Assembly (NCBI GenBank): GCA_017991515.1
Contig: JAGOQI010000001.1
Location: 41,641 to 105,640, forward strand
Reading direction: 5' to 3'
Origin: Minisyncoccota bacterium
GTDB lineage: Bacteria > Patescibacteriota > Minisyncoccia > Phycocordibacterales > UBA9973
DNA: 64,000 nucleotides
The notes under the pieces are model-generated. The model saw only the letters and a list, made by a program, of their open reading frames with translations. It ran no database searches and had not been told where the DNA came from. Both the position numbers and the translations under genes were made by a program. The first letter of the stretch is position 1. Each line of letters begins with the position of its first letter. Shown here piece after piece: positions 11,967-40,529 of the stretch.

Positions 11967-13715
11967 ATGACATCTAGTGAGATAAGGAGTAGATTTTTAG
12001 AATTTTTTGCCAAGCGAGGACATGCTGTGCTTCCAAGTGTCTCTCTAGTCCCTAAAAATGACCCTTCTGTGCTTTTTAATACTGCGGGTATGCAGCCACT
12101 TGTGCCATATCTTATGGGGCAACCACATCCATCTGGGAATAAATTAGCTAGTTGTCAGAAATGTGTTAGGACAGGTGATATAGATGAAATAGGTGATAGT
12201 AGGCATTTAACATTTTTTGAAATGCTTGGTAACTGGTCACTAGGAGACTACTTCAAAGAAGAAGCTATCGGCTGGAGCTATGAATTTTTAACTTCAAAAG
12301 AAGAAGGTTTGGGATTAGATCCAGCTCGCCTTTATATAACAGTTTTTGAAGGAGATGAAGACGCACCTCGCGATACAGAAGCAGTAGAGATTTGGAAAAA
12401 ATTTATTCCAGAGAACCGTATTTATTTTCTACCAAAAGAAAATAACTGGTGGAGTCCAGGAGATAATGGCCCATGTGGTCCTGATACTGAAATGTTTTAT
12501 GATACGACCGAGCAAGGCTTGGGAGATTTGTCACATGAACAATTTGTAACAGCAGATGAAAACGGTCAAGTTGTGGAGATTTGGAACGATGTTTTCATGG
12601 AATATGAAAAACGAGATGGCAAAGTAATAGGGAAATTGTCACAAAAAAATGTTGACACAGGGAGCGGACTTGAGCGCATATCTATGATTGTTCAAGGAAA
12701 AGATAATGTTTATGAAGCAGATATGTTTAAAACTGTTATGGATTTTATTTATACCAACACTCGCAAACCTTATGATTTAAAATCTGCCAGAATTATTGCT
12801 GATCATATTCGTACTGCGACTTTTCTTATTGCCGATGGAGTCACTCCAAGCAATAAAGACCAAGGTTATATCCTAAGACGCCTTATTCGTAGAGCGGTTG
12901 TTCAGGCTGATATCTTAGGGTTGACACATGGAGTTTTGGTTACTGTCAGAGGTTTCTTTGCTTCACAATACAAAGACCAATACCCAGAACTCGAAGGTGG
13001 GCTAGGTATTCAAAACGATATTTTTAAAAATGAATTAGAAAAATTTCAAAAAACTCTTGAGCAAGGACTAAAAGAATTTGAAAAAGGTACTGATCCATTT
13101 ATTTTAGCTACAACTTATGGTTTTCCTATTGAAGTCACTGAAGAAATTGCTAAAGCTCAAGGTTTAAATATAGATAGAGAATCTTTTGATAAACAAATGA
13201 AGGCTCATCAAGACGCATCTCGCTCTGGAGCAGAACAAAAGTTCAAAGGTGGACTTGCAAATACTAGCGAACAAACAACTCGTCTTCATACTGCGCATCA
13301 CTTACTTTTAAAAGCATTGCAAGAAGTAGTTAGCCCTGATATTCATCAAAAAGGCTCAAATATCACTGAGGAACGACTGCGTATAGACTTTAACTTTGAT
13401 AGAAAGCTGACAGATGAAGAGAAAACTTTAGTTGAAAACAAGGTGAACGAATGGATATCTCAAGATTTGAAAGTTGTTAAAAAAGATATGCCTAGAGCTG
13501 AGGCTGAAACTATTGGAGCTGAAATGGAATTTGGAGTTAAATATCCTGACCTTGTATCTGTTTATTTTATAGAAGATGCAGATGGTAATGTTATTTCAAA
13601 AGAATTCTGTGGTGGCCCGCATGTCCAAAGTATTGGCTCTCTAGGAGAATTCAAAATTCAAAAAGAAGAAGCTTCTTCTGCAGGAGTTAGGCGTATTAAG
13701 GCAGTTTTAATTTAA
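11967..13715 (+). CDS. alaS: Alanine--tRNA ligase, short form lacking C-Ala domain
   Basis: Class II AlaRS catalytic core plus editing domain HxxxH (HTAHHLL); only 582 aa. Confidence 0.85.
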   Translation: MTSSEIRSRFLEFFAKRGHAVLPSVSLVPKNDPSVLFNTAGMQPLVPYLMGQPHPSGNKLASCQKCVRTGDIDEIGDSRHLTFFEMLGNWSLGDYFKEEAIGWSYEFLTSKEEGLGLDPARLYITVFEGDEDAPRDTEAVEIWKKFIPENRIYFLPKENNWWSPGDNGPCGPDTEMFYDTTEQGLGDLSHEQFVTADENGQVVEIWNDVFMEYEKRDGKVIGKLSQKNVDTGSGLERISMIVQGKDNVYEADMFKTVMDFIYTNTRKPYDLKSARIIADHIRTATFLIADGVTPSNKDQGYILRRLIRRAVVQADILGLTHGVLVTVRGFFASQYKDQYPELEGGLGIQNDIFKNELEKFQKTLEQGLKEFEKGTDPFILATTYGFPIEVTEEIAKAQGLNIDRESFDKQMKAHQDASRSGAEQKFKGGLANTSEQTTRLHTAHHLLLKALQEVVSPDIHQKGSNITEERLRIDFNFDRKLTDEEKTLVENKVNEWISQDLKVVKKDMPRAEAETIGAEMEFGVKYPDLVSVYFIEDADGNVISKEFCGGPHVQSIGSLGEFKIQKEEASSAGVRRIKAVLI

Positions 13716-16989: not shown

Positions 16990-17424
16990 ATGGGAAAGAA
17001 AAGAATTGCAACTCAAGAAGGTCAATTGGTGGACGCTGACAAGCGCTCTCGTGCTACAGCTCGTGCACCAAAGAAAAAACTTACTACATGCATTTTAGCT
17101 ATAGAGTCTACTTTTAATAATACAAAAGCAGTAGTAAGTGACCTTAAAGGCAATGTATTGTTTTGGTCTTCATCTGGGTCTCTAGGGTTTAAAGGAGCAA
17201 AAAAAGGAACACCTTTTGCTGCTTCAAAAGTAGGTGAAATACTAGCAGAAAAAGCTGTTACAGCAGGCATAAAGGAAGCACATGCTGTAGTAGTAGGAGT
17301 TGGTTCAGGCCGAGAACCATTGATTCGAGCCTTTGTTGCTCCTGGTATCGAACTTTTATCAATCAAGGACCGAACACCTGTTCCACATAATGGTCCAAAG
17401 CCTAAGAAGCCTCGAAGAGTATAA
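16990..17424 (+). CDS. rpsK: 30S ribosomal protein S11
   Basis: Conserved S11 core …GNVLFWSSSGSLGFKGAKKGTPFAA…. Confidence 0.9.
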   Translation: MGKKRIATQEGQLVDADKRSRATARAPKKKLTTCILAIESTFNNTKAVVSDLKGNVLFWSSSGSLGFKGAKKGTPFAASKVGEILAEKAVTAGIKEAHAVVVGVGSGREPLIRAFVAPGIELLSIKDRTPVPHNGPKPKKPRRV

Positions 17425-39257: not shown

Positions 39258-39295
39258 GGATTTATTTTAGCACATAAGTTATCCCCAGCTTTTTT

Positions 39296-39325
39296 CTTGC
39301 ATGTGAACGATTGTTCACATATAAT
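39296..39325 (+). promoter_or_regulatory. Promoter TTGCAT-N17-TATAAT with embedded SOS box TGAACGATTGTTCA (39304..39317; GAAC-N4-GTTC, Cheo-box type)
   Basis: Read directly; GAAC at 39305-39308 and GTTC at 39313-39316 lie in the spacer of a good -35/-10 pair upstream of the small-ORF/lexA operon. Confidence 0.55.
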
Positions 39326-39356
39326 AAAAACATAGAAGAATAGTAGAAAAAGGCAT

Positions 39357-39548
39357 ATGACAACAACACAATATCAAAAATCATTACAAAGAGAATTAGT
39401 ACAACTAAACCGTCGCATCGATATGATGATCATAAGAGGACAGTCATATGTAGCAGAATCTAGAAAGCACAAAATGCTATTGCGACAACTACGAGCAATG
39501 CAAGGGCAAAGCTTCTTTGGCAGACTAACTAGTTCAATGAGTTTCTAA
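39357..39548 (+). CDS. Small protein (63 aa), SOS-operon member 1
   Basis: MTTTQYQKSLQRELVQLNRRIDMMI…; paralogous to next ORF; first gene after SOS-box promoter. Confidence 0.4.
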   Translation: MTTTQYQKSLQRELVQLNRRIDMMIIRGQSYVAESRKHKMLLRQLRAMQGQSFFGRLTSSMSF

Positions 39549-39549
39549 T

Positions 39550-39741
39550 ATGACAACCAGTCCACAATTTAAAAAAGCTATACTAAGTAACTTAGAGAGA
39601 CTCAACTCTCTACATATACAAATAGATAGAAGTGCTACAATATATGATATGAGTCTTAGAGATTATTCAAAACGAATATATTTGAGAAATCAAAAGTCTC
39701 CGAGCATATTTCGTCATTTCTTCCTACAGAAAGTTTTCTAA
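39550..39741 (+). CDS. Small protein (63 aa), SOS-operon member 2, paralogue of 39357..39548
   Basis: MTTSPQFKKAILSNLERLNSLHIQI…; same length, same MTT start, alignable pattern; 1-nt gap from previous ORF. Confidence 0.4.
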   Translation: MTTSPQFKKAILSNLERLNSLHIQIDRSATIYDMSLRDYSKRIYLRNQKSPSIFRHFFLQKVF

Positions 39742-39746
39742 TATTT

Positions 39747-40316
39747 ATGAATAGCAACGAACCAACAGAACAATTAAAATCTTTTTATCATTCCGAAAAG
39801 CGTATGCCAAGCTACAGTGAAATGATGGATATGTTTGGCTTCAAATCTAAAAATGCTGTTTATAGATTGGTTCAGAAAATGCTAGACGCTGGCATTGTCG
39901 CCAAAGATCATTTGGGACGACTTTTGCCAACCTCACTTTTCAATGACATACCAGTTGGTGGACTTGTTAAAGCAGGCTTACCATCATCAGTAGACGCTCA
40001 GAGTGAGTCTATTAACCTCAATGATTTATTGATAAGTAAAAAGAGGGAGACTTATATACTAGAAGTAGAAGGACTCTCTATGATAGAAGCTCATATAGAA
40101 CCAGGGGACATGGTAATAGTCGAAAAGACTAATACTGCCAAAGAAGGTGAGATAGTGATAGCTATGGTAGACGGGGAGCATACTATGAAATATTTCCGTA
40201 AAGACAAGTCTGGCAAAGTATATCTAGAACCAGCAAATAAAAGTTTCAAGAATATTTATCCTGAAGAGTCTTTGGAAATAACTGGAGTAGTGAAAGGGGT
40301 AGTTAGAAAGTATTAA
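39747..40316 (+). CDS. lexA: LexA repressor (S24 peptidase)
   Basis: N-terminal wHTH; C-terminal S24 domain with LEVEGLSMIEAHIEPGDMVIVEK (catalytic Ser) and downstream Lys region. Confidence 0.8.
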   Translation: MNSNEPTEQLKSFYHSEKRMPSYSEMMDMFGFKSKNAVYRLVQKMLDAGIVAKDHLGRLLPTSLFNDIPVGGLVKAGLPSSVDAQSESINLNDLLISKKRETYILEVEGLSMIEAHIEPGDMVIVEKTNTAKEGEIVIAMVDGEHTMKYFRKDKSGKVYLEPANKSFKNIYPEESLEITGVVKGVVRKY

Positions 40317-40529
40317 AAAAAGCCCTTAAAGGACTCTTTTGTTTAACATTTTCTTTTTTTTGTTCAGATTCTTTTCGAGCATTTTCTGCTCTAGGCTTTT
40401 CAATGATAATCCAAATTACTAGGATTATCATTGTGGTATAAAAAAATATGTTAAATTGAAGACTATCTCCACTATCTTTTTTCATAAGCTTTTTCTTTTA
40501 GAATACTACTATATAAATATTTGTCAATA

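Follow-up and report, generated by a model that had tools for sequence, protein, structure and literature searches.

A small-protein family encoded with lexA behind a predicted LexA operator in Patescibacteria

The window, a stretch of 64,000 nucleotides from a Minisyncoccota bacterium, carries a compact group of three genes on the forward strand. ORF A (63 aa, 39357-39548) lies directly upstream of ORF B (63 aa, 39550-39741), which begins 1 nt past the ORF A stop; lexA (189 aa, 39747-40316) follows 5 nt past the ORF B stop. There are no terminator-like sites between the three genes, and Rfam and tRNA scans of the region gave no matches. A single promoter-like site occurs within ORF B (39682-39710), but it is weak, and its conservation was not apparent in a by-eye comparison with one related sequence. 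The sequence-only reading of this region had described two tandem 63-aa ORFs, each beginning MTT, followed by LexA behind one promoter. Both descriptions are correct; the gene order, the short gaps and the terminator-free junctions all agree with this layout and suggest that ORF A, ORF B and lexA are co-transcribed.

In most related loci, the distance from the ORF A stop to the lexA start is -8 to +23 nt, and in 13 loci the start and stop codons overlap by 8 nt. One reading of this arrangement is that the small ORFs are translated leaders only, controlling lexA by translational coupling, with functionless peptides. The lexA gene has no obvious Shine-Dalgarno sequence and starts right behind ORF B, and stop/start overlaps are common among the relatives, all of which would suit a leader. 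However, the amino-acid sequences are under strong purifying selection, with dN/dS of 0.03-0.15 for ORF A and 0.12-0.45 for ORF B, which evolves faster. Residues are also invariant across 116 diverse ORF A family members, the fold of ORF A is predicted with confidence and its tail motif is conserved. We therefore disfavour functionless leaders as very improbable, and the same dN/dS values uphold the earlier claim that the two small ORFs are real genes.

The promoter upstream of ORF A consists of a -35 hexamer TTGCAT (39297-39302), a 17-bp spacer (39303-39319) and a -10 hexamer TATAAT (39320-39325), all on the forward strand. It had previously been placed at 39296..39325, of which the end is correct, while the -35 begins one base later. 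This -35 is weak, matching TTGACA at 3/6 positions, which is why the promoter is missing from a consensus promoter scan. At the equivalent position, relatives have TTGACA or TTGCAT, and their -10 hexamer is mostly TATACT. The spacer contains the predicted LexA operator GTGAACGATTGTTCAC (39303-39318, forward strand), a perfect 16-bp palindrome of the GAAC-N4-GTTC type, extendable to TGTGAAC/GTTCACA (39302-39319); a box of this type within the 17-bp spacer of a TTGCAT/TATAAT promoter is exactly what had been proposed. As in the Gram-positive Cheo type, the GAAC-N4-GTTC inverted repeat overlaps the promoter, and we take the operator core to be the Gram-positive GAAC-N4-GTTC SOS box.

GAAC-N4-GTTC occurs three times in the window where 0.61 copies are expected, and at least three copies appeared in 2/100 shuffles. 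The other two copies fall within the alaS and rpsK coding sequences, so these statistics are weak by themselves. The real evidence for the predicted operator is its conservation, as each locus has a single perfect box, invariably at the lexA-operon promoter. The copy at 39303-39318 is the sole zero-mismatch operator in the window. It is unchanged in 12 close species, where synonymous sites differ by 47-94%, and in 59 of 61 metagenome loci the operator sits inside the promoter spacer at the equivalent position (family consensus GTGAACGnTCGTTCAC). An SOS-box-controlled operon with LexA autoregulation had been suggested from the window alone; across dozens of lineages, the operator is conserved, keeps its place within the spacer and precedes the genes in unchanged order. 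LexA would thus be expected to bind here, and comparative sequence evidence makes regulation of the operon by LexA well supported; the operon is very probably LexA-repressed.

A scan of the window that tolerated mismatches gave no further LexA box (matches stayed at chance level), and the ~14 kb beyond its ends held none either. Across ~78 kb of the source genome, with its ORFs viewed in part, and ~440 kb of related loci, some judged by Pfam labels, there was neither a second box, an absence that counts against our interpretation of the locus, nor a recognised canonical SOS gene. The SOS network of Patescibacteria is reportedly the subject of a 2017 study by Sanchez-Osuna, Barbe and Erill.

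A DnaA-box-like 9-mer, TTATCCCCA, is also present on the forward strand at 39279..39287, ending 9 bp upstream of the -35; it was absent from the earlier note. Taking the 9-mer TTATCCACA, or the relaxed form TT[AT]TNCACA, as the DnaA box, the window copy is one mismatch away from TTATCCACA, with C replacing A at position 7. Of 56 distinct related promoters, 52 carry TT[AT]TCC[AC]CA at fixed spacing, 46 as the exact TTATCCACA, and in most lineages TTATCCACA is found 7-9 bp upstream of the -35. The 9-mer is present in 59 copies at the lexA-operon promoter vs 11 elsewhere (217 kb). Its match to the consensus suggests that DnaA may bind here, and we consider an input from DnaA at this promoter slightly more probable than its absence. 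The window's own box, with its C at position 7, and its weak -35 both count against an explanation with DnaA input. A literature search for a DnaA box together with a lexA promoter found none. With its conserved position beside the predicted operator, the box suggests that replication initiation is wired directly to the gene of the SOS repressor.

The lexA product is a bona fide LexA, with a probable winged-helix N-terminal domain and an S24 peptidase domain (Pfam PF00717, E=1.5e-25). It scores 113.2 bits against TIGR00498 (cut-off 110.95), while its N-terminal domain scores 13.7 bits against Pfam LexA_DNA_bind, below the cut-off of 23.7. The protein aligns over its full length (residues 13-188) with the solved LexA of T. 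maritima (3k2z, E=2e-18). The cleavage site A76-G77 and the catalytic dyad Ser111/Lys148 line up with solved LexA and UmuD structures and are all invariant in 11 related LexAs. Gram-positive LexA (DinR) proteins share the S24 domain, the Ala-Gly site and the Ser/Lys dyad, and have the winged-helix domain that is probable here; in autoregulated Gram-positive lexA (dinR) promoters, a GAAC-N4-GTTC palindrome likewise serves as the operator of the repressor gene itself. However, the operator here is a longer palindrome (GTGAACGnnCGTTCAC), is single and exactly fills the promoter spacer; lexA closes the operon instead of opening it, and the DnaA-box 9-mer lies upstream of the -35.

To place the small ORFs in a wider context, we gathered LexA loci from metagenomes by a scan with a LexA alignment. 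An ORF A gene lies immediately upstream of lexA in 76 of the 80 loci; three of the remaining four are contig ends, and the last has a decayed ORF A copy beside an intact lexA. Distant members of the ORF A family behave in the same way, with all eight of those checked directly upstream of an S24 LexA gene. The arrangement had been called unusual, but ORF A followed by lexA is in fact the rule in this class of Patescibacteria, and only ORF B is a clade-restricted addition. While LexA autoregulation is textbook, it is unusual for a small-protein family to accompany lexA in practically all sampled members of a large class of uncultivated bacteria, and ORF A is probably an unrecognised part of the damage response in these relatives.

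This near-absolute, one-to-one linkage within one operon, seen from both sides, is what one would expect if ORF A were an accessory subunit of the repressor, binding LexA and tuning its operator binding or its RecA-stimulated self-cleavage, to form a two-protein SOS switch. The 8-nt overlaps in 13 loci suggest translational coupling and matched dosage. Identities to the window proteins also co-vary between ORF A and LexA across loci (r=0.81), although shared phylogeny alone could explain this. On the other hand, ORF A evolves faster than LexA; that it is as conserved can be ruled out, as it has ~39% identity where LexA has ~60%. The lineage with a decayed ORF A has also kept its lexA intact, and LexA is not known to need a partner in any of the phyla studied. 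We regard an accessory subunit as possible, but rather doubtful.

There are precedents for such a partner. Phage GIL01 gp7 (PMC4551915) and Acinetobacter DdrR, with UmuDAb, are small proteins that work with LexA-like repressors, and a small LexA-binding protein that enhances DNA binding and blocks cleavage has been described (PMC4551915); the tie of ORF A to LexA is one of gene linkage. Unlike phage-encoded gp7, ORF A is chromosomal. A PDB sequence search showed no similarity of ORF A to any solved protein, including gp7 if it is present there, which counts against an accessory role. Viral contigs were also scanned, and the close ORF A family had no relatives among them.

The ORF A family consists of 287 clusters from Patescibacteria, all without annotation. 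Neither ORF A nor ORF B matched anything in Pfam, NCBIfam or PHROGs, and a Pfam scan of the 116 family members gave no consistent family (the best was hit by 4/116, at E>=0.0056). Set apart in this way by Pfam, NCBIfam, PHROGs and PDB sequences, the ORF A family is undescribed. Of the homology and structure predictions that had been suggested for the two peptides, those for ORF A thus yielded homologues and a confident fold, but no match to a known family. In the AF2 model of ORF A (pLDDT 86), helices span residues 3-27 and 32-60, and the protein is predicted to be a strongly basic helical hairpin whose C-terminal tail is rich in Phe. The motif N18, I21, D22, G28, Y31 and H38 is kept family-wide. 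Phe accounts for 20% of the tail across the family vs 1.6% elsewhere; a PhiPhi-x-[RK] motif is found in the tails of 75/116 members, and the Phe-rich tail reads [SG]-F-F-x-R-L-F. A beta-clamp-binding motif (QL[SD]LF) was considered for the tail and rejected, as Ser usually stands at the required hydrophobic position and the Gln is absent. Kyte-Doolittle hydropathy revealed no transmembrane segment in ORF A or ORF B, with maximum 19-residue means of 0.17 and 0.13, respectively (ORF A family median 0.15, maximum 1.27).

The family has a median net charge of +8 over ~64 residues, which raises the question of whether ORF A is a small nucleic-acid-binding regulator that occupies TTATCCACA as a second autoregulator, or acts on ssDNA, RecA or the replisome like DinI and RecX. 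A conserved cis element does adjoin the promoter, and the nearest folds to the ORF A model in a Foldseek search against PDB are a bundle-forming helical hairpin and the arm of seryl-tRNA synthetase, an arm that binds tRNA. However, these matches are weak (E>0.7) and only generic helical hairpins were found. DnaA is also the simpler binder, because the 9-mer is exactly the DnaA-box consensus, and a non-palindromic 9-mer is an improbable site for a hairpin dimer. Such a role would also leave the Phe-rich tail unexplained, and we consider it improbable.

ORF B occurs mainly in the clade of the window organism. A single-sequence database search with ORF B returned no matches, not even the query itself, while a profile search found 14 homologs. 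Its AF2 model is helical but of low confidence (pLDDT 66), and was hence not used for a fold search. The two small proteins had been described as paralogous and as aligning along their length. Pairwise BLASTP (25% identity, E=6.3) does not bear out either claim, but profile-profile comparison points to paralogy for the N-terminal half, or helix. Using close ORF B sequences only, hhalign against ORF A gave a probability of 12% (P=0.0024), a score reached by 1/300 shuffles. With four divergent second ORFs added, the probability against the ORF A family rose to 80% (P=1.4e-5; 0/300 column shuffles). Residues 4-31 were the sole aligned part in every run, and the remainder does not align. These results support a remote paralogy of the N-terminal halves, which BLASTP alone would have wrongly dismissed, since the pairwise result is not significant.

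We interpret the locus as the autoregulated lexA operon of a Paceibacteria-type (CPR/Patescibacteria) bacterium. A near-consensus sigma-70 promoter would have its whole 17-bp spacer taken by the 16-bp LexA operator GTGAAC-N4-GTTCAC, and as the operator occupies the entire spacer, LexA bound there as a dimer should keep RNA polymerase out. Once DNA damage had activated RecA, LexA would cut itself at Ala76-Gly77 via Ser111/Lys148 and the promoter would fire. A single mRNA would then yield ORF A, ORF B and new LexA, which would re-silence the operon after repair, and the DnaA-box 9-mer upstream of the -35 would probably add an input from replication initiation. ORF A and ORF B, the latter as a diverged tandem copy of the former, would be small damage-checkpoint effectors, cytoplasmic or membrane-peripheral, that pause division or replication during repair, in the manner of SulA, YneA, SosA or Sda but unrelated to them. 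Taken whole, with autoregulation, DnaA input and checkpoint effectors, this is our best explanation, although we put it at somewhat less than an even chance.

The effector role of ORF A and ORF B is our preferred reading, but a tentative one that could well prove wrong. Known SOS division inhibitors are less conserved than the ORF A motif, which counts against it. In its favour, FtsZ and FtsA are encoded in the source genome, and Gram-positive SOS division inhibitors are characteristically encoded beside lexA, and their groups resemble one another in sequence slightly or not at all (PMC6851548). Being upstream of lexA on one mRNA, ORF A and ORF B should be made whenever LexA is made, basal level included. 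Such expression is hard to reconcile with a growth inhibitor that is stable and well translated, and fits a LexA partner better. Again in favour of an effector, the Phe-rich tail of ORF A, with its PhiPhi-x-[RK] motif, presumably resembles in sequence the amphipathic helices that target proteins such as MinD to membranes by their C-terminus. In MinD, such a helix has been described (PMC8155659).

Membership of the SulA/YneA/SidA class, with which the small proteins had been compared, is not supported beyond analogy: both lack a transmembrane segment and a LysM domain and match no family, and for SulA no Pfam or NCBIfam match to ORF A or ORF B at E<=1. Inhibitors of the YneA/SosA/ChiZ/DivS type have in common with ORF A and ORF B that they are small, LexA-controlled (as is predicted here) and adjacent to lexA. 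However, they are usually divergent from lexA, whereas ORF A and ORF B are upstream on the same strand. They also have one transmembrane segment, with the C-terminus extracellular, and mostly a peptidoglycan-binding LysM domain, whereas ORF A and ORF B are soluble, basic and helical, without either. Unlike them, ORF A and ORF B are conserved across the whole bacterial class in this comparison, although ORF B itself is clade-restricted.

Two other small helical proteins invite comparison. Sda of Bacillus subtilis is a helical hairpin of ~50-60 residues that acts as a DnaA-regulated replication and damage checkpoint; its promoter has DnaA boxes and responds to replication stress, and its C-terminal residues control its stability. 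Its target is a sporulation kinase, which is not expected in Patescibacteria, and ORF A differs from Sda in having no Pfam match to it and in being additionally under a LexA operator. YnzC (UPF0291, DUF896) is a small helical hairpin encoded in the LexA-controlled yneA SOS operon of B. subtilis, beside lexA. ORF A and ORF B gave no match to this family at E<=1, the 116 members gave none at E<=0.1 among their top families, and the conserved motif and tail of ORF A differ from those of YnzC.

ORF A could supply the damage-checkpoint effector that is missing from these minimal, episymbiotic cells, or it could be a LexA cofactor of a new kind; in both cases, a stress circuit that is among the best studied in bacteria would gain a component. 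Perhaps the ORF A family is even an obligate LexA partner, as a co-repressor or cleavage gate, at a promoter that integrates damage (through LexA) with replication initiation (through DnaA), with ORF B a recent diversifying duplicate; we think this combination unlikely. The locus also illustrates how annotation can fall short systematically: the annotation of the source genome apparently omits ORF B, and several ORF A family members have been called too long at the N-terminus, so that the operator itself is translated.

The promoter, SOS box, two small ORFs and lexA described in the sequence-only reading were confirmed in that order. The promoter (TTGCAT, 17-bp spacer, TATAAT; 39297-39325, plus strand) contains a perfect palindrome, GTGAACGATTGTTCAC, inside its spacer (39303-39318), and is followed on the same strand by ORF A (39357-39548) and ORF B (39550-39741), of 63 aa each, and by lexA (39747-40316, 189 aa). 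The intergenic gaps are only 1 nt (ORF A/ORF B) and 5 nt (ORF B/lexA), and a window scan found no terminator-like sites between the three genes. The genome belongs to Candidatus Pacebacteria (CPR/Patescibacteria), and GC content in the window is low (34.9%). The window LexA is a genuine LexA: an S24 domain is recognised (E=1.5e-25), the protein scores 113.2 against the NCBIfam LexA equivalog (cut-off 110.95) and aligns over its full length with the Thermotoga and E. coli LexA structures, and neither the Ala76-Gly77 cleavage site nor Ser111 or Lys148 varies among 11 aligned related LexAs.

The automatic promoter scan skipped this promoter because its -35 fits the consensus in only 3/6 positions; relatives have TTGACA where the window has TTGCAT. 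The GAAC-N4-GTTC core of the operator, which matches the Gram-positive SOS box, has three copies in the window where 0.61 would be expected. As the other two matches (13233-13244 and 17372-17383) are internal to the coding sequences of alaS and rpsK, where they are most likely due to chance, the window statistics alone prove little. Among the 61 metagenome loci with enough upstream sequence, 59 have a perfect TGAAC-N4-GTTCA, every time between -35 and -10, and the promoter family consensus is TTGACA-GTGAACGnTCGTTCAC-tTATACT. No further perfect boxes occur in 226 kb, made up of the window and the first 24 loci, and there is no second LexA box in ~78 kb of this genome or in any of the examined relatives' loci. 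Canonical SOS genes were likewise not recognised by partial ORF inspection of the ~78 kb or among the Pfam labels of some loci.

Its location between -35 and -10 means that the operator predicts repression by RNA polymerase occlusion. LexA occupying the spacer would block the polymerase and keep the operon repressed, DNA damage would induce it, and the operon would then return itself to the off state. Such a LexA-repressed, damage-inducible, self-resetting operon, with predicted LexA binding, is well supported, and this part of the sequence-only interpretation stands; what the small proteins do, we only infer. The circuit itself is of a known type, and what is new in it is a widely conserved small-protein component, although the gene or motif may have been described earlier.

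Several ORF A family entries in the databases (P0034, P0039, P0041, P0054, P0139 and P0149) carry false N-terminal extensions, which are the translated LexA operator and -10 ('ERSFTYT', for example, is GAACGTTCGTTCACTTATACT). This recurrent gene-calling artefact also gives the operator away in distant lineages. In a Zambryskibacteria locus (L014 1886-1915) and a Taylorbacteria locus (L026 2473-2501), ORF A starts just 6-7 nt past the -10, implying a leaderless mRNA. Two other loci (L004 5905-6000 and L010 5904-6000) have a ~40-nt 5' UTR insertion between promoter and ORF A, with two GC-rich hairpins (CCCGCTATGGCGGG and CCCACGCC..GGCGGGG).

A further promoter element had gone unnoticed in the sequence-only reading. 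TT[AT]TCC[AC]CA is present in 52/56 distinct promoters, and in 46/56 it is exactly TTATCCACA, the DnaA-box consensus. In 48/56 promoters, this 9-mer stands 15-17 nt before the operator TGAAC, which puts it 7-9 bp ahead of the -35, and it keeps the same promoter position in most lineages (loci L003-L107). In 217 kb, it was counted 59 times at the lexA-operon promoter vs 11 times elsewhere. The window has a DnaA-box-like 9-mer, TTATCCCCA, at 39279-39287. From these putative boxes we infer a DnaA input to the lexA-operon promoter, which is unexpected in such a circuit. The only exact TTATCCACA of the window lies within 1216-1262 (with a counterpart at L108 10611), 9 nt ahead of a promoter-like TTGCTT-17-TATATT, with the same 9-mer/promoter spacing as at lexA and without a LexA box. 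Downstream are hairpins (~1271-1305 and 1318-1336) and then a signal-peptide-like small ORF from 1409; the site might represent either another promoter under DnaA control or a small RNA.

Both small ORFs are genuine genes, with dN/dS (Nei-Gojobori) of 0.03-0.15 for ORF A and 0.12-0.45 for ORF B where synonymous sites differ at 47-94%; a pure leader-peptide role is highly improbable. ORF A is a member of a large and so far undescribed family. Its close homologs form 27 clusters (73-100% identity), every one named 'hypothetical', and an exhaustive profile search (E<=0.001) yielded 287 clusters at the 50% identity level, nearly all with lengths of 60-70 residues. A source is named for only a few members; these are from MAGs of Patescibacteria, Taylorbacteria, Nomurabacteria and Pacebacteria, where the label is 'hypothetical protein'. 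The signature of the family reads LN..ID.KI..G..Y..E...HK.L, and AlphaFold predicts ORF A to be a helical hairpin (helices 3-27 and 32-60, pLDDT 86). Nothing specific was found for the small ORFs or the ORF A family in Pfam, NCBIfam, PHROGs, PDB sequences or Foldseek. Family members lack a transmembrane segment, and their median net charge is +8. A nucleic-acid-binding role seems rather improbable. Phe makes up 20% of the C-terminal tail vs 1.6% of the rest of the protein, and 75/116 members have the tail motif [SG]-Phi-F-x-[RK]-Phi.

We tentatively favour, at somewhat less than even chances, a role for the small proteins as checkpoint effectors, because in Gram-positive bacteria division inhibitors are encoded in this same location, beside lexA and under LexA control (PMC6851548). 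The cationic, Phe-rich ORF A tail resembles a MinD-type peripheral membrane anchor (PMC8155659), and this genome encodes FtsZ and FtsA, which also counts in favour. A small helical hairpin with putative DnaA-box control is, in addition, reminiscent of B. subtilis Sda. Counting against checkpoint effectors, the small proteins lack both a transmembrane segment and a LysM domain, and their synthesis would accompany that of LexA, basal level included.

An arrangement regarded as unusual in the sequence-only reading turned out, for ORF A and lexA, to be the rule. The gene after ORF A encodes an S24 LexA of 171-190 residues in all 12 GTDB species and 8 distant family members considered, while the remaining neighbours vary from locus to locus. 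Conversely, ORF A lies just upstream of lexA on the same strand in 76/80 metagenome loci (LexA 56-91% identical); in three of the other four the upstream sequence is shorter than 165 nt, and the fourth carries a decayed copy. The ORF A stop is mostly -8 to +23 nt from the lexA start, and ORF A is the faster-evolving partner (~39% identity where LexA has ~60%). The operon linkage, strictly one-to-one, and the overlap of stop and start codons speak for the main rival to a checkpoint effector, an accessory factor of LexA akin to phage GIL01 gp7 (PMC4551915), which we rate as somewhat less likely. The decayed copy (L041 440-700) is the only such LexA locus; operator and DnaA box are intact, and ORF A begins MSQAQY... 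but lacks the family motif further on, apparently owing to a frameshift or deletion.

As a single query, ORF B had no database match, not even itself, and is thus apparently unannotated in its source genome. In 11 related species, a matching frame of 61-63 codons (50 in one) begins one base past the ORF A stop, with conserved N- and C-termini (MTTSPQF[KR]QAI..NLERLN and FFLQKVF), and a profile query found fourteen relatives. Apart from a few other lineages, only the window's clade has ORF B-like genes; elsewhere, ORF A is mostly followed directly by lexA. The two small proteins had been called paralogous and alignable along their length, yet BLASTP between them is not significant (E=6.3), and a close ORF B profile matches the ORF A family with a probability of 12% (P=0.0024), a score reached by 1/300 column shuffles. 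After adding four divergent second ORFs (L032, L089, L068 and L094), picked because they lie between ORF A and lexA, the probability was 80% (P=1.4e-5), and 0/300 shuffles reached the score. On this profile similarity, which concerns only the N-terminal half, ORF B most plausibly arose as a tandem copy of ORF A and then diverged; even the enlarged profile aligns just residues 4-31, leaving the remainder unaligned. In other lineages a second small ORF of their own separates ORF A from lexA (L068 923-1114, L094 1273-1476, L089 1260-1481 and L033 1194-1334); it differs from the window's ORF B and has an ORF A-like N-terminal helix, and some second ORFs keep an ORF A-like tail (e.g. KGFLARVLGN). 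It seems that divergence of the second cistron has happened repeatedly.

DNA-repair genes often adjoin ORF A-lexA in distant lineages (L015-L017 1162-2708; upstream in L020/L021; L022 116-853), including an Ogt-type methyltransferase, a GIY-YIG nuclease, an HhH-GPD glycosylase and a PolB-exonuclease-like gene, none with a perfect LexA box of its own at these loci. In the Taylorbacteria locus L026 (3320-5154), an MgsA/RarA-type AAA+ gene starts 1 nt past lexA and is followed by a TSCPD-domain gene, so this operon may extend into replication and repair functions. In the window, a minus-strand 60-codon ORF with one hydrophobic segment (FNIFFYTTMIILVIWIII; 40303-40485) converges on lexA, overlapping its last 14 nt. 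Small ORFs with such a segment are absent in L010-L012 and present in L001, L005 and L006. The window's 60-codon ORF has a good promoter-like site, TTGACA-16-TATTCT (40527-40500, minus strand).
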